64,000 bases of DNA from Verrucomicrobiia bacterium. GTDB taxonomy: Bacteria; Verrucomicrobiota; Verrucomicrobiia; Limisphaerales; UBA1319. This document shows positions 22,995-43,908 of the stretch, piece by piece. The position numbers and the translations under genes were made by a program. The stretch covers positions 2,784,001 to 2,848,000 of the forward strand of contig OY760937.1 in NCBI GenBank assembly GCA_963664225.1. The letters are read 5' to 3'. Numbering within the stretch: the first letter of the stretch is position 1; every line of letters begins with the position of its first letter. Below the pieces are notes generated by a model. That model was given only the letters and a program-made list of their open reading frames with translations, was not told the origin of the DNA and made no database searches.

Positions 22995-23987
22995 ATGAAT
23001 AAGAAACTTATATCTTTCAGCGCAATGGCCGCTGCATTGCTGCTGAGTTTGGCCGTTGCAACGCCCGTCGAAGCTCAGACTTGGATGACCAACGGATTGG
23101 TCGCCCACTACCCGATGCACGGCGATGCCAACGATGTGAGCGGCTACGGCATGCATGGAACGTTGACGGGCTCACCCTTGATGACCACCAACCGTTTTGG
23201 AGATTCTGGTGATGCCCTCGGCTTCAATGGGGGGATGGATGCGATCATGTTGACCAACCTAAACGTGAACATGCTCACCAACGGTCAGAACACAGTTTGT
23301 CTTTGGATGCGATGGGATGGCGGTGTTGATGGCAGCACCAATCCGGTTGCCATGCCCTTCGGATGGGGGGACACGAATCAGAATTATTGTCTGCTATTCC
23401 AGCGCGCAGGAGCCGGTCGCTTTGGCTTCAGTGATGGCATGGGTGATGTCTATGGCACGAATTTCGGCTCCATGTTATCGAATCATTGGGTCCATGTGGC
23501 CGCCGTCTTCAACAACGGCGACATGATGAACTCCGGGCTTTATATCAATGGTCAGCGGGTGGGCGGATCGATGACGGCTGGTGGAATGCCGATGGGTATG
23601 GGAATGGGGATGATGGTCCGGCGAAGCGCGAGTCCGATGGCTTTCCTTGGTGGATTTGGAGACCAAGGTTCGGTTCCTTATCACTTCTTTGGCGCGATGA
23701 GCGACGTGCGCATCTACAACCGTTCTCTCACCGACGCGGAGATTGCCGCCCTGATTCAGATGGATGCCGCACCCACCATGCGGATGATGGAAGGACCCAC
23801 AGCAGGCACTGAGAATGTGGAGTTCAATTCAATGATGATGGATTGGCAGTTCCAGATGCAGTTTTCAAGCGATCTGACGCATTGGACCAACTACTCGGAT
23901 GTCTTCATGCCCGGGTCGAATACGATGGTTCGCACGATTGATATGGGAGGACCGCAAATGTTCTGGCGCTTACAGGCCAAACCTTGA
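22995..23987 (+). CDS. secreted Met-rich LamG/concanavalin-like domain protein
   Basis: GLVAHYPMHGDANDVSG, WVHVAAVF, LYINGQ, MSDVRIYNRSL; 36 Met in 330 aa by my count. Confidence 0.8.
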   Translation: MNKKLISFSAMAAALLLSLAVATPVEAQTWMTNGLVAHYPMHGDANDVSGYGMHGTLTGSPLMTTNRFGDSGDALGFNGGMDAIMLTNLNVNMLTNGQNTVCLWMRWDGGVDGSTNPVAMPFGWGDTNQNYCLLFQRAGAGRFGFSDGMGDVYGTNFGSMLSNHWVHVAAVFNNGDMMNSGLYINGQRVGGSMTAGGMPMGMGMGMMVRRSASPMAFLGGFGDQGSVPYHFFGAMSDVRIYNRSLTDAEIAALIQMDAAPTMRMMEGPTAGTENVEFNSMMMDWQFQMQFSSDLTHWTNYSDVFMPGSNTMVRTIDMGGPQMFWRLQAKP

Positions 23988-24071
23988 ACAGCGATCAGGT
24001 CGGCTCTTGCCTCAATTGATTGGACACCGAACACACCTTCATTTGAAATTCGATGCCCTTTCATATTTTGT

Positions 24072-24099
24072 TTGAACAATTTCTGCACCCGCGTATCTT
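24072..24099 (+). promoter_or_regulatory. putative sigma70-type promoter of leader 1
   Basis: TTGAAC-N16-TATCTT, 7 nt before GTG 24107; same motif before leaders 2 and 3. Confidence 0.55.
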
Positions 24100-24106
24100 A
24101 CCAATT

Positions 24107-24493
24107 GTGAGCAAACTCACCAAAGCAGTAGCGCTTATCGTGCTGGCCCTATGGGGACTGGCAGTGGTGCATTGCAAATTGGAAGTGTTGCCCGGGCTCG
24201 ATTTCCTCAAGATTTCCTGTGTTGCAGGCTTGTCGCAGTCCTCCCTAAAGCATTGCGAAGGCGATGGCTGTGGTGCGGTTGAAGATGGAGGCTGCGAGGT
24301 TGAGGATGAGACGGTTTCTGCCCCTCAACCCCTTCTCAACTTCGCGCTTCTAACCTCGTTGATTGAGGCCCCATTGCCTGAACTTCAGACTTGCCGCTTC
24401 GTCGCGTCCCATACTCCGCCTGACATTCTCAGAATCTGGCAGTTCTCTTATCGCACGGCACTTCCCGCCCGTGCTCCTTCCCTCGTTTCGTAA
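24107..24493 (+). CDS. Cys-rich exported leader protein with C-terminal RAP motif (leader 1; CzcI/DUF2946-like architecture)
   Basis: N-terminal hydrophobic segment, HC and C-x4-C, ends WQFSYRTALPARAPSLVS; paralogous to 34007 and 42118. Confidence 0.8.
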   Translation: MSKLTKAVALIVLALWGLAVVHCKLEVLPGLDFLKISCVAGLSQSSLKHCEGDGCGAVEDGGCEVEDETVSAPQPLLNFALLTSLIEAPLPELQTCRFVASHTPPDILRIWQFSYRTALPARAPSLVS

Positions 24494-24585
24494 GTAGTCC
24501 CGTTCGGGACTTTCCTCTCCACGCGGAGTGATTTCACGCCGTGGTTTTAATTTTTCCTGTTTTAGATTTAACGTTTATAATGCTT

Positions 24586-25905
24586 ATGAAGCGACACATT
24601 TATTGCAGCTTACAGTTTCTGCTGGCACTGGCGTTTGGATGCACGGTGGCTTTGTCTCAACAAACCAATTTGCCTCCCGACACATCTTCCCCGGAACAGC
24701 GCGATGCTGCCACATTGGAGACGCTGATCTCCGAGGCGTGGACCAACAACCCGGAAGTGCGCTTGTTTGAAGCCGCTGTCGCGGGCGCACGCGGCGAGTT
24801 GATCACCGCCAGGACCTGGGACAATCCAGAAGTATCCTTTGCCCCGGGGGCGGTTTACACAAAAGAGAGTGGCAGTTCATCGCGCACCGATTTTCACAGT
24901 GATTTCGGGGTATCGCAGATCATTCTCTTTCCGGGCAAACGAGCCTTGCAGCGGGCGGTGGCGGAAAAGACAGTTGAAACCCGCCAATTGGCGCTCATTG
25001 CTTTTCAAACTCAACTTGCCATTCAGGTGCATCGCTCGTTCTACAGATTGCTGGCCGCACGGCAGATGGTCGCCTTGCGCCAGCGGCATCTGGAGCTGGC
25101 TCAATCATTCCTTGAAGCGGCGCGAAAAAAAGTGGAAGGAGGATTCGCACCGGACTTCGAGCAGACCAAAGCTGAAGTGGACGTGGCGGCGAGTCAGAAG
25201 TCACTGCGTGAATCACACGCTGACGAAGCCGTAGCTCGCACAGCGCTCAATTCGCTTGTGGGCCGGAAGCTGGACGCAACGGTGTCCATTGCCGGTGAGT
25301 TTAGCGAAAGCCCATCCGTGCCGGAGGAAGCAATATTATTGAATCATGCCCTGGCACATAACCCGATCCTGAAAATCCAGGCGGCGGAAGTCGAGCGTAC
25401 CGGTATAAGTCTTGCGCTTACGAAGAAGTCGCGCCTGCCGAATTTCACGGTCGGCCCGTCAGTGGAATACCGCGAAGGCGAGCAGATTTATGGGATGGGA
25501 ATCTCGCTGCCCTTGCCGTTTTGGGACAAAAAGAAAGGTGCGATTACCACGGCCACCGCCGAACAACAACGCTCAATGGCCGAACTCGAAACGTTGCGCA
25601 GGGACATCGTGCGTGATGTGAGCAGCGCGGCACATTTGCTGACTGCGGCGAGGGAGTCTCTCGCCATCTACACACCGGCATTTCGCGCCAAACTCAAATC
25701 CGCACTCGACAGCGCCTCGCAAAGTTACGCGGAAGGTCGCACTTCGCTACTCATTTATCTGGAAACTGAACGCACTTATTACGATACGGAGGCCGCCTAT
25801 TACGAAACCTTGCAGCGGCTCTACGACGCCCAGGCCGCGTTGGAGGCGGGATTGGGAATGCCCTTGAGCGAACTGGAAAAGTCCAAACCATCAACAAACA
25901 AGTAA
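24586..25905 (+). CDS. TolC/CzcC-family outer membrane efflux protein
   Basis: Signal peptide, NNPEVR, PGKRALQRAVA, GISLPLPFWDK; first structural gene of an RND operon. Confidence 0.9.
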   Translation: MKRHIYCSLQFLLALAFGCTVALSQQTNLPPDTSSPEQRDAATLETLISEAWTNNPEVRLFEAAVAGARGELITARTWDNPEVSFAPGAVYTKESGSSSRTDFHSDFGVSQIILFPGKRALQRAVAEKTVETRQLALIAFQTQLAIQVHRSFYRLLAARQMVALRQRHLELAQSFLEAARKKVEGGFAPDFEQTKAEVDVAASQKSLRESHADEAVARTALNSLVGRKLDATVSIAGEFSESPSVPEEAILLNHALAHNPILKIQAAEVERTGISLALTKKSRLPNFTVGPSVEYREGEQIYGMGISLPLPFWDKKKGAITTATAEQQRSMAELETLRRDIVRDVSSAAHLLTAARESLAIYTPAFRAKLKSALDSASQSYAEGRTSLLIYLETERTYYDTEAAYYETLQRLYDAQAALEAGLGMPLSELEKSKPSTNK

Positions 25906-33972: not shown

Positions 33973-34006
33973 ACATATCTTGTCTTTCCAGTATCTATTT
34001 TCTGAA

Positions 34007-34402
34007 ATGCGTCGTCGTTGCTTGAACATCGTGATAATCGGCTTGATGGCCTTCCTCTGGGTGGCTCAGGCGGCGCATTGCCAGATTGGGACGATTCCGG
34101 GACTTGATCTTCTTGCGTGCGCCAGCGGCGGGAATGCCGAAAATGAAGCTCATTCCTGCTGCGGAGGTACGTGTAAGAACATCGAATCCCGCGAGCAGAA
34201 AGCAGAGAAAATGAAACGCCCCGCCGCTCCCCGGCCTGAATCTCTGCCTTGGTTGGCAACTGCCTTGGCTGCTCTCCGTTTGTCAGAGTCCGACAATGAT
34301 CGCAGTATTTCATTCGCGGACGTTCCGCCGGAACTTCCCAAGTGCTGGCAGTTCTCCCATCGCACAGCCCTTCCTCCCCGTGCGCCTTCGATTGCTTCCT
34401 AA
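34007..34402 (+). CDS. Cys-rich exported leader protein with C-terminal RAP motif (leader 2)
   Basis: Hydrophobic N-terminus, HC, HSCCGGTC, ends WQFSHRTALPPRAPSIAS; TTGAAC-N17-TATCTA at 33969-33997. Confidence 0.8.
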   Translation: MRRRCLNIVIIGLMAFLWVAQAAHCQIGTIPGLDLLACASGGNAENEAHSCCGGTCKNIESREQKAEKMKRPAAPRPESLPWLATALAALRLSESDNDRSISFADVPPELPKCWQFSHRTALPPRAPSIAS

Positions 34403-34519
34403 GTAGTCCCGGTCGGGACTCCCTCTCCGTCGTGGTGTAAAACGCACCGCGCATCTCCGTTTGCCATTTATCAGGTCGTTTTGAGTCCGCACTCGGTTGT
34501 CCGTTTTTAGTTTGAAATT

Positions 34520-35842
34520 ATGAAGAAAAGAATTGATGCAATTGCCCTTCGTTCCGTCGCGTGGTCGCTGGCATTCACCGGCGGCTGCCTCTTGGGATTC
34601 GCTGCCCAAGCGGCTGATTCGCCTGCGCCACCACCGTCGGTGAGTTCAGCGACCAATGTTCTGACGCTGGACGGGGCGGTCCGCCTCGCGCTGGAGAACA
34701 ACCCTGAACTGCGCGCTTCGGGGGCGCGGGTGGACGCGGCTTCCGGGCGGGCCTACCAAGCCAGGAAGTGGACCAACCCGGAATTGGAGTTGAGCGCCGA
34801 AGACTGGCCGGTGAGCAACGGGCGTGGGTTTTCGGACGCCAAACAGACGATCGGCGTGGCCCAATCGCTGCCGTATCCAGGGAAGAAGTCACTGGACAAG
34901 CAGATTGGGGGCGCGGGAGTGAAGCTCTCGGAAGCGGAACTGGCGCTGCGCCGGACGGAAGTCGTCCGGGACGTAAAGGCGGGATTTTTCCGCGTGCTGG
35001 CGTCCGAGCGGTTGGTCGAGGTATCCACGCAACTGGTGGCAGTGGCGGAATCTTCCGCCGGCACGGCGCGGAAGCGGGTGGACGCCGGGGCGACCGCGTA
35101 TCAGGAGCAGTTGCGGGCGGAAGTGCAGTTGGAACAGGCGCGGACGGAGCTGACGGGCTTTCAGCGGGAGCTGGCCAGCGCACGGCAGATGTTCGTGACC
35201 CTCCTGGGGCGGCCCGACTTGAAGAATGCCAGTCTTTCCGGGTCACTGGCGGAAGGGCCGGAGGCGAACCTGCTGGAGGAGGTGGGAGCGGAGCGACTGG
35301 CCAAGCATCCGAGCACGGTTGCCGCGCAAGCCAACCTGGACCGGGCGCAACTGGCCTATCGGCGGGCGCGGCTGGAGCCGTATCCCGACGTGAAGATGGG
35401 CGTATCGGGCGGACGCATCGGGGCCTCGGACCAGTCCATCATCCAACTGGGCTTCTCGGTGCCACTGCCCCTCATCGACCGTGGCAAGGGGAAACAGCAG
35501 GAAGCGCGGGCGAACGTGAACGTGGCGGAAGCGGAACTGCACGGCGTGCAGCAGCAGTTGCAGCGCGAGTGGGCCAACGCACACAAACGCTACCGCACCG
35601 CCGCCGAACAGGTGTCCAATTACCGCGAGCGGATTCTGCCGAAAGCGGGCGAGGCGCTGCGGTTGGTCCAGACCGGATTTGAACAAGGCAAGTTCAACTT
35701 CATTGATCTGGTGGACACGCAACGCACCACGGCAGAAGCACGGCTCGCCTATCAACAAAAACTGCTCGAACTGAACATCGCCCAAGCGGAACTGGCGGCG
35801 TTACTCCAACCACAAACCACCCAAACTTCAACCATCAAGTAA
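34520..35842 (+). CDS. TolC/CzcC-family outer membrane efflux protein (operon 2)
   Basis: Signal peptide, ALENNPELR, GFSVPLPLIDRGKG. Confidence 0.9.
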   Translation: MKKRIDAIALRSVAWSLAFTGGCLLGFAAQAADSPAPPPSVSSATNVLTLDGAVRLALENNPELRASGARVDAASGRAYQARKWTNPELELSAEDWPVSNGRGFSDAKQTIGVAQSLPYPGKKSLDKQIGGAGVKLSEAELALRRTEVVRDVKAGFFRVLASERLVEVSTQLVAVAESSAGTARKRVDAGATAYQEQLRAEVQLEQARTELTGFQRELASARQMFVTLLGRPDLKNASLSGSLAEGPEANLLEEVGAERLAKHPSTVAAQANLDRAQLAYRRARLEPYPDVKMGVSGGRIGASDQSIIQLGFSVPLPLIDRGKGKQQEARANVNVAEAELHGVQQQLQREWANAHKRYRTAAEQVSNYRERILPKAGEALRLVQTGFEQGKFNFIDLVDTQRTTAEARLAYQQKLLELNIAQAELAALLQPQTTQTSTIK

Positions 35843-40286: not shown

Positions 40287-40595
40287 ATGAAAGAAATCAA
40301 AGCCATCATCAAACCCTCGCGCCTGGAGGAAGTCGTCCACGCCTTGCGCCAAATCAAAGACCTGCCCGCGATCACTGTTTCGACGGCGAACGGATTCCTC
40401 GCCCAACACGGCACATTCGACCAGGTGGTGAAGACCAAACTGGAAATCATGGTGTCCGATGATTTGGTGGAAGCCGTCGTGCAAGCCATCCAGAAAGCAG
40501 CGCACACCGGCCTCGCCGGCGATGGGCGCATCTTCGTGATTCCCATTGAGGAGACGGTGAAGATTCGCACGGGAGAACGGGACACGCACCAGTAG
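40287..40595 (+). CDS. PII-family protein with shortened T-loop
   Basis: MKEIKAIIKP, KTKLEIMV, AAHTGLAGDGRIFV, KIRTGE. Confidence 0.85.
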   Translation: MKEIKAIIKPSRLEEVVHALRQIKDLPAITVSTANGFLAQHGTFDQVVKTKLEIMVSDDLVEAVVQAIQKAAHTGLAGDGRIFVIPIEETVKIRTGERDTHQ

Positions 40596-40610
40596 CCACA
40601 CCTTGAGTTT

Positions 40611-40922
40611 ATGAAAAACACAACCAAGTCCAAAAAGAACAAGAGCGGGCGAGAACCACAAAAGATACGGATCGAGTTCCACGCTGAACAGGCGCAAGCC
40701 GTGTCCATCGCCGGGACGTTCAATGACTGGCATCCCCAAGCCACGCCCATGAATCCTTTGGGCGAGGGCCGCTGGGTCAAGGAACTGGTGCTGCCGCCGG
40801 GCCGCTACGAATACCGTCTGGTGGTGGACGGCGAGTGGCTTTGCGACCCGGCGGAGACGGAGAAAGTCCCCAACCCATTCGGCGGCTGCAACTCGATTCT
40901 CATAGTGAGAGGTGGGGCATGA
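40611..40922 (+). CDS. stand-alone glycogen-binding (CBM48/AMPK1-CBM-like) domain protein
   Basis: VSIAGTFNDW, LPPGRYEYRLVVDGEW..DP, NPFGGCNS. Confidence 0.8.
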   Translation: MKNTTKSKKNKSGREPQKIRIEFHAEQAQAVSIAGTFNDWHPQATPMNPLGEGRWVKELVLPPGRYEYRLVVDGEWLCDPAETEKVPNPFGGCNSILIVRGGA

Positions 40923-41122
40923 AACACCGTCATCATGGTTTTGGAGCGCACTTGGAAGTTCACACGCAGGCGGTGGTTCGATGCTTGGTTTGTGCAAAAC
41001 AAATCCGCCCTGACGATGAAGTATTTGAGATTCATCATGCTGGCACTTCGCACCGCGTCTGTTGCCCGTCCTGCGCGGCAAAATTCGAGGCGTCGCCAGC
41101 AAGCTATATCGTCATGTCGTGA
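40919..41122 (+). CDS. small TRASH/YHS-like Cys/His-rich protein
   Basis: MKHRHHG, CLVC...CCPSCAAKFEASPASY; ATGA overlap with upstream stop. Confidence 0.65.
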   Translation: MKHRHHGFGAHLEVHTQAVVRCLVCAKQIRPDDEVFEIHHAGTSHRVCCPSCAAKFEASPASYIVMS

Positions 41123-41147
41123 GCATTCGCCCTAACTCGCAACTGTT

Positions 41148-41558
41148 GTGACAAACGCGGCTAAACAACAGGAACAAGTTCCAATGCGGCGAGCCTGCAT
41201 TCTCCACGCCGAGGACGACCGGTTCACTTCCATGTCCATTGCGCGATTGCTGACCCTCAAGGGATTCAAGGTCGAAAGCGCGACGAACGGCTTGGATGCG
41301 CTCACGGAACTCCTGTCCCGTCCCGCCGCCTACGATTTGATCATCACCGACCAGTCCATGCCCTCGATGACTGGCATAGAGTGGTTGCAGGGAATTCGTG
41401 AAAGCGGCTTTTCGGGGAAAATTATTGTGTATGCCGCCTCGCTGCCGGAGGACTTGGCGGGTCGCTTGCGGGAATTGGGTGTGGAAAGGATTGTCCACAA
41501 ATCGGAGAGCCTCCAATCACTCCTGGAAGCCATCCACGAACTGTTGGGAGAGGCATGA
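41148..41558 (+). CDS. single-domain response regulator receiver
   Basis: ILHAEDD, YDLIITDQSMPSMTG, conserved Lys. Confidence 0.85.
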   Translation: MTNAAKQQEQVPMRRACILHAEDDRFTSMSIARLLTLKGFKVESATNGLDALTELLSRPAAYDLIITDQSMPSMTGIEWLQGIRESGFSGKIIVYAASLPEDLAGRLRELGVERIVHKSESLQSLLEAIHELLGEA

Positions 41559-42117: not shown

Positions 42118-42504
42118 GTGAATCGGCTGAAGCCATTTGTAACGTTGATCGTGTTGGCGCTGTGGGCGTCATGCGTGATTCGTTGCGAGGCCGTGAAGCT
42201 GGGTTGCTCCACAGCGCTCTTCTGTTGTAGCGAACAATCCGACGACTGCGGCGACAAACCCGCATCCGCCGATCATTGCGTGTGCAGTTGGATCAAGTCC
42301 GGCGGCATTATCTCGGAACAAACCGCTGTTCCCGTCCTGCATCCGGTTGACCTTGTGCTCGTCCAGTCACTTGTGGAATTGCAAGCTCCGCTTCCTCAAA
42401 CCCGTTCGGTCGAAGTGCATTCCTCCCTGCCTGAACTTCTCACAAGTTGGCAATTCTCCCGTCGCGCCGCGCTATCGCCGCGCGCTCCTTCGTTCGTTTC
42501 ATAA
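42118..42504 (+). CDS. Cys-rich exported leader protein with C-terminal RAP motif (leader 3)
   Basis: Hydrophobic N-terminus, RC, CC, HCVC, ends WQFSRRAALSPRAPSFVS; TTGAAC-N17-TATTCT at 42083-42111, 6 nt before GTG. Confidence 0.8.
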   Translation: MNRLKPFVTLIVLALWASCVIRCEAVKLGCSTALFCCSEQSDDCGDKPASADHCVCSWIKSGGIISEQTAVPVLHPVDLVLVQSLVELQAPLPQTRSVEVHSSLPELLTSWQFSRRAALSPRAPSFVS

Positions 42505-42597
42505 ACCGTCCCTCGCGGGACGTTCTCTGACGGAAGCGGTGTGCCCGCCCGCTACGAAGGTTTGATTCCCTGTTTGGTTTGGTTAGTTGTGATTTTT

Positions 42598-43908
42598 ATG
42601 AAGCGAATGTGTCTTGGCAGTCTGATTTTGATAGCCGTGCTTGGTGGCGCGGCGCATGGAGCGGAAACGAATAACGTTCCGATGGCGGTAACGGCCACAA
42701 ATGCCGCGACACTGGACGCCTTGGTCGCGGAAACGCTGGAGCGGAATCCTGAACTCAAATTCTACGAGGCCGAAATCGCCGCTGCGAAAGGCGGACGCAA
42801 GACTGCCGGGTTGCTCGCCAATCCTGAATTAAGCGGCGGCGTCGGCAACAAGACCATCCGGGGCGGCGGCGTGAATGCCGAAGGAGTCGCGTGGTCGGTG
42901 TCGGTCTTGCAGCCGTTCGAGTGGCCGGGGCGACTTGGACTGCGCAAGGCTATCGCCAACCGCGATATTGAACTTGCCGAGCTTGGTTACGCGCGATTCA
43001 AGGTCGCGCTCGCCGGGCGGGTGCGGGCGTTGGCCTATGGATTATTCGCCGCACAGGAAAAGGCGGCAGCCACACGCGAAGTGGCCGAGCGGTTCAAGGC
43101 ATTGCGCGAAGTGCTGGTGCAACGCGATCCCGCCGGACTGACGCCACTGCTCGAAACGCGCGTCATCGAGGCCACCGAACTGACGATGCAACGCAAGGCG
43201 AGCGACGCAACGCTCGCCACGCAATCGGCATTGCTCGAAATGAATCAACTGCGCGGCGTCGCACCGGACACGCGACTTGCAGTGAGTCAGACGCATCTGG
43301 CATTTCGTCCGGCGGAGAGCCTGGAAACACTCACGGCCCTCGCGCACACCAATAACTTTGAACTGCGCCTCCGCGCAATCGAACTCGCACAACAAGGCTT
43401 CCGCGTTGACCTCGCAAAGAACGAGCGTTACCCGGCCATCTCGCTTGGGCCGACGATTTCGGAAGAAAACGCGGGCGACCATGAGCGCATCATCGGCGTG
43501 GGCGTTTCACTCCCGCTGCCGCTGTGGAATCGCAACAAGGGAAACATCCAAACGGCGATGGCGCGGCAGATGCAGGCCGAGGTTTCGCTGAACGTCACCG
43601 CGCGCGAAGTCGAACGAAAGGTGATTGAGGCCGCGCTGACTTACGAAACGAAGCTGCGCCAGATGGCATCGTGGCGACCGGATTCCGTGGAACACTTCCG
43701 CGAGGCTGCTGAATTAGCCGACCGCCATTATCGGCTCGGCGCAGTGCAGATCAGCGTCTATGTCGAGTTGCAGAAGCAATATCTGGAAGCAGTCGAGAGC
43801 TTGCTCGACACGAAAAAGGAAGCCCTTGAAGCGGCGCAGAATCTTGAATTGCTCACCGGCCTGACCCTGCCGCTGTCGAGCACCACGACGAAAGAGGAAC
43901 AGAAATGA
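42598..43908 (+). CDS. TolC/CzcC-family outer membrane efflux protein (operon 3)
   Basis: Signal peptide, ERNPELK, GVSLPLPLWNRNKGNI. Confidence 0.9.
   Translation: MKRMCLGSLILIAVLGGAAHGAETNNVPMAVTATNAATLDALVAETLERNPELKFYEAEIAAAKGGRKTAGLLANPELSGGVGNKTIRGGGVNAEGVAWSVSVLQPFEWPGRLGLRKAIANRDIELAELGYARFKVALAGRVRALAYGLFAAQEKAAATREVAERFKALREVLVQRDPAGLTPLLETRVIEATELTMQRKASDATLATQSALLEMNQLRGVAPDTRLAVSQTHLAFRPAESLETLTALAHTNNFELRLRAIELAQQGFRVDLAKNERYPAISLGPTISEENAGDHERIIGVGVSLPLPLWNRNKGNIQTAMARQMQAEVSLNVTAREVERKVIEAALTYETKLRQMASWRPDSVEHFREAAELADRHYRLGAVQISVYVELQKQYLEAVESLLDTKKEALEAAQNLELLTGLTLPLSSTTTKEEQK

Follow-up and report, generated by a model that had tools for sequence, protein, structure and literature searches.

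What does an RNA hairpin that begins only two nucleotides (nt) after a stop codon do for the gene that follows it? The question is raised three times by a 64,000-nt stretch of a Verrucomicrobiia genome (contig OY760937.1, positions 2,784,001 to 2,848,000; hereafter the window), in which three leader genes with an Arg-Ala-Pro (RAP) motif near the C-terminus each precede a czcC gene. A first-pass annotation had described a hairpin (H1) after every leader stop codon and had taken it for a cis-acting RNA element at the leading edge of a ribosome stalled at RAP, with four options for its action: a pause hairpin, a Rho-loading element, an attenuation element or a translational-coupling switch. The comparative analysis presented here shows that H1 is a conserved, covarying, cis-acting RNA hairpin. 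In about half of the leader family, the last three codons of the leader, its stop codon and the next 1-2 nt are moreover predicted to pair with the start region of czcC. The initial interpretation was upheld in part: the cis-acting RNA element and its position stood, and the long-range helix to which H1 adjoins had been missed.

The three hairpins of the window were found as first described, with a 6-base-pair (bp) stem, a 4-nt loop and a 2-nt offset in all copies, and with a compensatory change of the outer pair from A-U (the first two copies) to C-G (the third). Their predicted folding energies were −8.7, −8.7 and −9.4 kcal/mol for copies 1, 2 and 3, respectively. The window copies are paralogues (36-42% identity), and therefore their mutual likeness proves nothing and evidence from the whole family was needed. 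The motif search gave 146 matches, corresponding to 136 distinct downstream sequences, and filtering by the C-terminal motif and by length, with three false regular-expression matches (L123, L133 and L141) taken out, left 131; 80 further stretches fetched from genomes of the order were included to give these 131 distinct loci. Removal of near-duplicates left 113 loci. A hairpin of the H1 type (ΔG ≤ −6, starting 0-6 nt past the stop codon) was present in 94 of the 131 distinct homologous loci (72%), in answer to the suggestion that its absence from homologous loci would speak against the element. The same definition was satisfied by 12% of 600 stops of long open reading frames (ORFs) from this genome, and by 22% and 20% of shuffled sequences and coding-region controls, respectively. 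The hairpin began 0-3 nt past the stop in 80 of the 94 loci, most often at 2 nt (37/94).

The covariance model that the first-pass annotation had proposed for homologous leader-czcC spacers recovered the element and revealed covariation. It was built from 29 ungapped examples and was preferred because a MAFFT alignment of the 131 loci was not structurally consistent. The search covered 100 sources, leaving out 11 near-duplicate sources that were all hairpin-positive, and returned 65 matches at E ≤ 0.02. Three of these fell in the window, all at leader stops and with E ≤ 3e-11, the next best match in the 64 kb having E = 0.68. Across the 65 matches, changes on both sides were observed at five of the six pairs (39 cells), and 89.3% of the cells were paired, compared with 78.0% in shuffles and at most 53.9% when the partners were slid. 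The covariation score was reached by none of 500 shuffles, a comparison to be read with the provisos that the alignment was fitted to the model, which somewhat favours structure, and that the shuffle controls ignore the kinship among loci. The stem sequences were diverse (e.g., GUCCUCG...CGAGGGC, GGCUCACGC...GCGUGAGUC, CACCG...CGGUG and UCAUCGUCAC...GUGAUGGUGA), and pairing was retained throughout the family over stems of 5-10 bp and loops of 3-9 nt, the inner C-G pairs being nearly invariant. In the inner five pairs, G-U outnumbered A-C combinations by 14 to 5, and the sense strand folded better than the antisense strand in 41 of 84 loci, equally well in 22 and worse in 21. Covariation, the excess of G-U over A-C and the variation in stem sequence and length all agree with the proposal of a cis-acting RNA element.

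Several other identities for H1 were considered and rejected. A dispersed repeat resembling repetitive extragenic palindromic elements was one of them: GTCCC-N4-GGGAC occurs 14 times in the 5.78-Mb genome, where composition predicts 10.5 occurrences. Four of these 14 palindromes lie within 1.7 kb outside the window (G000:C1:193830-195511) and may belong to a repeated motif, coding or structural, that has no relation to the leaders. An Rfam scan of positions 20000-50000 at E ≤ 1 gave two chance-level matches only (24.0 and 19.5 bits, with gathering scores of 55 and 45). Inspection by eye for alternative pairing of the H1 arms with the leader end, the linker or the second hairpin (H2) found nothing conserved beyond 3-4 bp. 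A subgroup of nine loci (L007, L008, L016, L018, L021, L024, L025, L050 and L062) carries an extra hairpin between H1 and a GGUGUG-type H2; a larger alternative fold, of down to −18 kcal/mol and with the 5' arm of H1 paired to a distal CGGGA, is predicted in this subgroup alone, which is devoid of the start-codon helix described below.

The partner of H1 emerged when the leader end and the czcC start were folded together. In copy 1, a helix of 13 bp was present in both the minimum free energy (MFE) and the centroid structures, contiguous with the six pairs of H1 and with an ensemble probability of 0.99; the fold had a z-score of −3.89, and none of 200 shuffles folded as well. Copy 3 was predicted to form a 15-bp helix, again in the MFE and centroid structures, separated from H1 by a 1-nt gap (probability 0.95). 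The helix was also predicted in a fourth copy of the locus, outside the window in the same genome, and its probability in copy 2 was 0.001. The register is a simple one: with bases numbered from the U of the stop codon on the leader side and from the A of the AUG on the czcC side, base i of the former pairs with base −i of the latter. The stop codon consequently pairs with UUA, that is, two U and the A of AUG, which fits the conserved UU before the AUG. At least eight consecutive pairs in this register were found in 35 of 106 loci, as against 5.3% of 228 further ATGs within the czcC genes of these loci, the czcC start having been picked among in-frame ATGs by best pairing in 9 of the 106 loci, which introduces a small bias towards the helix. 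The paired fraction over columns −9 to +4 was 0.681, compared with 0.630 when starts were dealt among the loci, and none of 500 shuffles reached the former value. Sliding the register by 1-4 nt reduced pairing to 0.414 or less and the number of double changes from 148 to at most 101. Column +3, the most telling one and non-coding on both sides, was paired in 0.58 of loci versus 0.40 (GC 16, UA 14, CG 11, GU 9, AU 8), and column −5 in 0.75 versus 0.65 (CG 32, UA 31, UG 16, CA 6). In the latter column, which is telling as well, the penultimate leader codon (Ala GCN or Val GUN) varies at its second base in step with the synonymous third base of czcC codon 2 (Lys AAG or AAA). The ensemble probability of the helix exceeded 0.5 in 41 of 99 loci, representing 37 distinct 5' strands, and the AUG was 9% unpaired there. 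The helix was commoner in loci with a strong H1 (47% vs 28%). Among the 49 loci with the helix in the MFE structure, the gap between its end and H1 was 0, 1 or 2 nt in 13, 10 and 8 loci, respectively. H1 thus starts 0-2 nt past the helix end, and the offset of "2 nt after the stop" corresponds to the last pairs of the long-range helix.

These observations are best accommodated, albeit at somewhat less than even confidence, by a translational switch of the SecM/CutF type, in which a ribosome arrested at RAP|S would hold the anti-start strand and free the czcC AUG. With no ribosome on the leader end, the long-range helix would hide the AUG of czcC, which is devoid of a Shine-Dalgarno (SD) sequence; the helix would stack onto H1, while H1 and H2 would draw its loop shut. 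By analogy with known arrest peptides, arrest at RAP|S is plausible; it would place the Pro codon in the P site and the Ser codon in the A site. The arrested ribosome would then keep most of the anti-start strand in its mRNA channel, leaving the AUG free for initiation, and would halt a few nt short of H1 (about 5 in copy 1), so that H1 stays folded. The pump would be made during leader arrest, presumably depending on metal that the exported portion of the nascent leader has bound. H1 itself would act as an architectural junction hairpin, the first arm of a multi-way junction closing the spacer, which ties up a G-rich strand, draws the two far-apart strands close to each other and delimits the arrested ribosome; on this favoured reading, it would be neither an SD mask nor a terminator. 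The downstream reach of a ribosome is about 15 nt from the first base of the P-site codon, with the helicase site near +11. In copy 1, where the Pro codon occupies 24476-24478, the arrested ribosome would extend roughly as far as the stop codon, and H1 begins at +20. The tail after RAP is exactly four codons long in 110 of 113 loci (mostly Ser, then a hydrophobic residue, V/A/L and S/A), so that H1 in the family begins 18-21 nt beyond the Pro codon's first base. In terms of geometry, therefore, the position claimed for H1, just past the reach of a ribosome with the RAP Pro in its P site, was borne out. The translational-coupling switch was also the best of the four options first listed as regards copies 1 and 3, for which the helix is predicted; copy 2 lacks it.

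Ribosome arrest at a leader end has precedents with which the proposed switch can be compared. In the TnaC-tnaA system of Escherichia coli, the ribosome held at the leader end blocks the RNA right after the stop codon, and the spacing to the stop matters; the stall of TnaC, however, is at the stop codon itself, where it keeps a Rho site blocked, and no hairpin is known to abut the stop. In CutF of Rhodobacter capsulatus, an exported Cys-bearing leader, copper-dependent stalling at a C-terminal PPP is described as opening a stem-loop that hides the cutO SD, and CutF-like (DUF2946) genes are reported to stand often upstream of OEP/CzcC pumps (PMC9973294; bioRxiv 10.1101/2025.02.05.636593). The present loci resemble what these accounts describe in that a small, exported-type, Cys-bearing leader heads a metal-detoxification operon, an arrest-like motif lies a few codons before the stop, and an intergenic RNA structure, here predicted, covers the initiation site of the next gene. 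They differ from CutF in that the leader is not a detectable member of DUF2946 and the motif is RAPS plus three codons rather than PPP. The target, too, is different, namely the AUG and its flanks instead of an SD, and the masking strand consists of the leader's own last codons and stop; the paired strands are about 95 nt apart with two hairpins between them, and the arrested ribosome is proposed to leave H1 unmelted. In Bordetella pertussis, CruR (bp2923)-bfrG has a DUF2946 leader in which RAPP arrest is described as keeping Rho off a C-rich site in the 3' half of its own gene, and a 162-nt structured spacer follows the leader (PMC9426467). As in that description, the verrucomicrobial leaders have a RAP-type motif near the C-terminus, a 3' half richer in C than in G, rare CCT Pro codons, a long structured spacer and no translational coupling, and control would be read from ribosome occupancy of the leader end (PMC9426467). 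Unlike the present leaders, CruR is a DUF2946 protein with RAPP that acts by Rho-dependent termination, and it is not described as having a conserved hairpin at the stop, whereas half of the loci studied here are predicted to carry a start-codon helix.

Among secretion monitors, SecM arrest is described as preventing an intergenic stem-loop from hiding the next gene's ribosome-binding site, RAPP/RAPG arrest peptides as stopping with the Pro of RAP in the P site, and Ser as natural at the A-site position in ApcA homologues and permissive for arrest (PMC7897499). The verrucomicrobial leaders share with SecM, ApdA, ApdP and ApcA, as these are presented, an N-terminal export-type signal and a C-terminal R-A-P/G motif (PMC7897499, PMC10951233, PMC10951299); the R, A and P are invariant in 45 sequences, and the next residue is Ser in 107 of 113 loci, with RAPP in one. 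In contrast, those peptides are described as monitoring Sec or YidC and controlling secretion genes through SD unmasking, whereas here the target is a metal efflux pump, and the leaders bear an additional long conserved stretch, PPELPxxWQFxxRTALP. A literature search found no paper on the verrucomicrobial leader or hairpin, the lists of CutF-like proteins in PMC9973294 lying outside its coverage.

Heavy-metal RND pumps are usually described as being under the control of two-component or MerR/ArsR-type regulators. In soil Verrucomicrobia, the leader and its structured spacer probably allow a heavy-metal efflux pump to be turned on by a stalled ribosome. An unannotated RAP-motif leader with a structured spacer ahead of such pumps is carried across a whole order (113 of 201 sampled genomes; 88 of 142 high-quality genomes and 77 of 118 genera), often in several copies per genome, and the module is in no RNA or protein family library. 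The principle represented by CutF and CruR, that a nascent exported protein senses metal and reports by arrest, would take in a protein family and a phylum that are new to it, and also a new RNA read-out: an SD-less start codon masked by the stop region of the leader itself, next to which a junction hairpin stands. More than 100 natural variants with and without the helix also constitute a comparative system for the way in which ribosome position is converted into gene control.

Besides the neglected kinship among loci and the small bias in start selection, several observations weigh against the proposed switch. The helix probability was below 0.05 in 48 of 99 loci, including copy 2, with the AUG 48% unpaired there, and a miscalled start explained only 3 of these 48 helix-less loci. 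When copy 2 was folded with 12 nt of the leader, a competing hairpin replaced H1 (34388-34410, GAUUGCUU-CCU-AAGUAGUC), joining the last leader codons to the stop and the 5' arm of H1. Shuffling of the spacer interior lowered the helix probability only a little, from 0.74 to 0.64, although the native interior does favour the helix slightly, its value being higher in 40 of 48 loci. The duplex energy of the leader end averaged −10.5 with the true start and −11.2 with other ATG windows of czcC; this test gives no support because it is confounded by composition. When the ribosome footprint was masked, the accessibility of the start region, averaged across all loci, rose only to 0.48 from 0.42. Finally, a strong H1 was retained in 29 of the 48 helix-less loci and lay 0-3 nt past the stop in 25 of these 29, and an offset of 0 was commoner there (9/29) than in helix-bearing loci (2/33). 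As H1 hugs the stop even where no helix is predicted, it probably has some role at the ribosome's edge that is independent of the helix; taken together with the invariant four-codon tail, this implies that the spacing between arrest codon and H1 is conserved in its own right.

Of the candidates for such a helix-independent role, the one that appears from sequence to have the most indirect support, though we consider it somewhat unlikely, is a Rho gate of the CruR or TnaC kind. The C-rich last ~90 nt of the leader, with the linker after H1, would be a Rho entry site covered by the arrested ribosome; H1 and H2 would fold up the rest of the spacer and perhaps pause the polymerase, Rho would load only after the ribosome leaves, and transcription of czcCBA would depend on arrest. 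Such a gate may act beside the start-codon helix. In its favour, C exceeded G over positions −90 to −1 (C 0.25-0.51, G 0.12-0.29), apart from one bin (−60 to −46) with slightly more G, and the two were about equal past +15. The frequency of G at fourfold sites was 0.25 in the last ten leader codons and 0.39 in czcC, the 7 nt after H1 were 72-93% pyrimidine, the spacer is long, H1 sits at the stop with or without the long-range helix, and Rho is encoded in the genome (682 bits against a cut-off of 509). A precedent is provided by CruR as described, in which RAPP arrest is combined with a C>G bubble in the 3' half of the leader and a structured spacer of 162 nt (PMC9426467). However, the Pro, Ala, Arg and Ser codons of the conserved peptide largely account for the C-richness, the linker measures only some 10 nt, the U/G-rich tail is C-poor, and nothing in the sequence makes a Rho gate require H1.

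We regard a two-layer switch as unlikely. Here, H1, at 18-21 nt from the arrest codon in almost all loci, would be a universal ribosome-edge element, to which the start-codon helix of half the family adds a translational layer: H1 would be the one RNA feature that is folded beside the arrested ribosome and has to be melted by a ribosome finishing the leader, and would report ribosome position to Rho or RNA polymerase, or to the nucleases and rescue factors that set the lifetime of the arrested complex. If true, this would amount to a new attenuator logic tied to a periplasmic metal-sensing nascent chain.

It is quite improbable that H1 and the single-stranded linker serve as a standby site, an S1-dependent landing place from which a waiting 30S subunit moves to the partly hidden czcC AUG once this is open. 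The absence of an SD from czcC and the conservation of the linker as pyrimidines would suit such a site, as would the succession of structure and single-stranded stretch ~70-90 nt upstream of a sequestered start, as described for E. coli tisB, where the corresponding distance is about 100 nt (PMC6690012, PMC7708055). The tisB site is, by the same accounts, at the processed 5' end of a toxin mRNA, with neither an upstream ORF nor an arrest peptide. Moreover, the linker is short (mode 10-12 nt, range 3-22 nt), the 30S subunit would sit within about 20 nt of the arrested 70S ribosome, and the contact of H1 with the stop codon would be left unexplained. A stability barrier has a similarly low probability. 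Exonucleases trim to stem-loops, and ribosome rescue needs an empty mRNA channel; H1 and H2 could accordingly protect a transcript that is processed or holds the leader alone against 3'-5' exonucleases at its 3' end, leading to unequal levels of leader and pump mRNA, or the filled channel could keep rescue systems off the arrested complex. Two stable GC hairpins straight after the stop, followed by a U-rich tail, and the adjacency of H1 to the stop irrespective of the helix are consistent with such a barrier, which has no need for a position 0-3 nt from the stop and does not explain the covariation between leader end and czcC start.

We consider it very unlikely that H1 is a completion sensor, that is, a pause site or weak terminator that forms while a ribosome is arrested 5 nt upstream, so that arrest means OFF, and is melted only by a ribosome reaching the last codons, which lets the polymerase proceed once the leader is finished. 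Given the dimensions of the ribosome, H1, at +18 to +21 from the Pro codon, would be outside the arrested ribosome and its 5' arm inside a terminating one, and the first two positions after H1 are U in 50% and 48% of loci. C, on the other hand, dominates from the third position, at least four U in the 5 nt after H1 were found in only 6 of 84 loci, and no sharp pause consensus stands at a fixed distance. An intrinsic terminator was rejected: the U count in the 8 nt after H1 had a mode of 3, terminators native to this genome differ from H1 in their longer stems (−8 to −22 kcal/mol) and U6-type tails, and a promoter and terminator scan of 23800-24800 found no sites. Finally, an operator for a dimeric regulator inside the operon, as the perfect inverted repeat GTCCC-N4-GGGAC and its nearly invariant inner C-G pairs might suggest, is scarcely credible in view of the variable yet paired stems and loops, the G-U excess, the better folding of the sense strand and the ordinary genomic frequency of the motif reported above.

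The remainder of the spacer is organised uniformly, in the order H1, pyrimidine linker, H2 and U/G-rich tail, with a median of 95 nt from the leader stop to the czcC start (interquartile range 87-111). The pyrimidine tract, second hairpin and U-rich run noted in the first-pass annotation were all seen in the three window copies, but H2 is not generally the weaker hairpin it had been called: in the family its median energy was −11.2, compared with about −8.7 for H1, and of the 84 loci whose H1 reached ΔG ≤ −5, 76 had an H2 of ΔG ≤ −6. H2 also covaries, with double changes at all six predicted pairs in a 30-locus alignment. The czcC start lies in a conserved UU-AUG-AAR context, and an SD-like 4-mer was found at only 5 of 103 loci; since czcC has no SD, the pyrimidine tract cannot be an anti-SD sequence. 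The coordinates of the window features are given in Table 1. In copy 1, the ATG at 24586 was favoured by its pairing with the leader end and by the family-wide MK(R/Q) start; the upstream ATG at 24580 and the GTG at 24541 that opens the longest ORF are less likely starts. ATG 42598 was similarly favoured over GTG 42541 in copy 3. A TATAAT just upstream of the copy 1 ATGs might suggest a promoter in the U-rich tail, but copies 2 and 3 show no counterpart.

Table 1. Positions of leader, spacer and czcC features in the window.
Feature	Position	Strand	Sequence	Remarks
Leader gene 1	24053..24493	+	ends ...WQFSYRTALPARAPSLVS*	146 aa; no Pfam/NCBIfam match
Leader 1 end	RAP codons 24470-24478; 4-codon tail 24479-24490; stop 24491-24493	+		
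Long-range helix, 5' strand, copy 1	24483..24495	+	UCGUUUCGUAAGU	last 8 coding nt, stop and 2 nt before H1 (predicted)
Stop to H1 end, copy 1	24491-24511		TAA-GT-AGTCCC-GTTC-GGGACT	
H1, copy 1	24496..24511	+	AGUCCC-GUUC-GGGACU	folds; match to covariance model R1, 51.5 bits
Pyrimidine linker, copy 1	24512..24521	+	UUCCUCUCCA	10 nt
H2, copy 1	24522..24543	+		−9.9 kcal/mol; followed by UUUUAAUUUUU
Long-range helix, 3' strand, copy 1	24582..24594	+	GCUUAUGAAGCGA	contains probable czcC AUG 24586-24588 (predicted)
czcC, copy 1	24586-25905	+		OEP family; probable start AUG 24586-24588 (family search used 24580)
Leader gene 2	33980..34402	+	ends ...WQFSHRTALPPRAPSIAS*	140 codons; start codon uncertain
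Stop to H1 end, copy 2	34400-34420		TAA-GT-AGTCCC-GGTC-GGGACT	
H1, copy 2	34405..34420	+	AGUCCC-GGUC-GGGACU	no long-range helix predicted; competing fold predicted with 12 nt of leader
H2, copy 2	34431..34451	+		−11.0 kcal/mol; czcC ATG at 34520
Leader gene 3	42118..42504	+	ends ...WQFSRRAALSPRAPSFVS*	128 aa from GTG
Long-range helix, 5' strand, copy 3	42491..42505	+	CGUUCGUUUCAUAAA	(predicted)
Stop to H1 end, copy 3	42502-42522		TAA-AC-CGTCCC-TCGC-GGGACG	
H1, copy 3	42507..42522	+	CGUCCC-UCGC-GGGACG	folds
H2, copy 3	42535..42553	+		−7.4 kcal/mol
Long-range helix, 3' strand, copy 3	42595..42609	+	UUUAUGAAGCGAAUG	includes czcC AUG 42598-42600 (predicted)
czcC, copy 3	42598-43908	+		OEP family; AUG 42598-42600

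The leaders of the window share a hydrophobic N-terminal segment, a Cys/His-rich middle part and the C-terminus WQFSxR(T/A)ALxxRAPSxxS*. The family leader is an unannotated protein of about 130 aa that ends in WQFxxRTALPPRAPS plus three codons. Among 45 leader sequences, C30 and C62 were invariant and H29 and C57 nearly so, in the patterns HC..LE and C..DxC, which are unlike the CXXC/CxxxC of DUF2946. The leaders had no match among Pfam and NCBIfam models, and the best 120 of 393 relatives (E ≤ 0.001) carried no Pfam domain and were all named "hypothetical protein". Membership of DUF2946 (PF11162) was rejected, as none of the three window leaders matched it at E ≤ 0.01 and none of 45 family members at E ≤ 1, and a profile-profile comparison with seven verrucomicrobial members gave a probability of 1.1%, with only nine columns aligned, around RAP. 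True DUF2946 genes occurred in 8 of 301 genomes of the phylum, five of them above the cut-off and none in the genome studied here. In these genes (L151-L158), the terminal motif is RAPP, RGPP or CGPP and is followed by 0-7 further residues, and some have a strong hairpin 1-13 nt past the stop, e.g., GCGGCC-UUC-GGCCGC at offset 1 in L153.

A scan of species-representative genomes gave 34 leader loci, nearly all of them from Verrucomicrobiota by title. A Pedosphaerales-type leader-czcC locus was also found in records of metagenome-assembled genomes labelled "uncultured Bifidobacterium sp." or "Akkermansia muciniphila" (L017, L026, L038, L033 and L034), and these labels appear doubtful. An OEP (CzcC-type) gene directly follows each of the three window leaders, and the large ORFs after the window czcC genes in the ORF list make a layout consistent with a pump operon. 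The fourth copy in the genome (L004) precedes another OEP gene and has the hairpin AGUCCC-AUUC-GGGGCU, in which a U-A pair is changed to U-G. A fifth, diverged copy (L005; G000:C1:2167604-2170972, minus strand) ends in RAPSFHA* and is followed, after a 158-nt spacer without an H1-type hairpin at the stop, by the gene of a P-type cation ATPase rather than an RND pump, which indicates that the leader family is not tied to czcC alone. A weak match (L006; G000:C1:2719968-2720054, minus strand; E = 0.011) covers the last 29 positions of the leader profile only; it may represent either a leader remnant or an ORF that ends in RAP without being related. Positions 40287-41558 of the window, which separate the second pump operon from the third, hold genes for a P-II protein, a CBM48/AMPK-type carbohydrate-binding module and a stand-alone response-regulator receiver.

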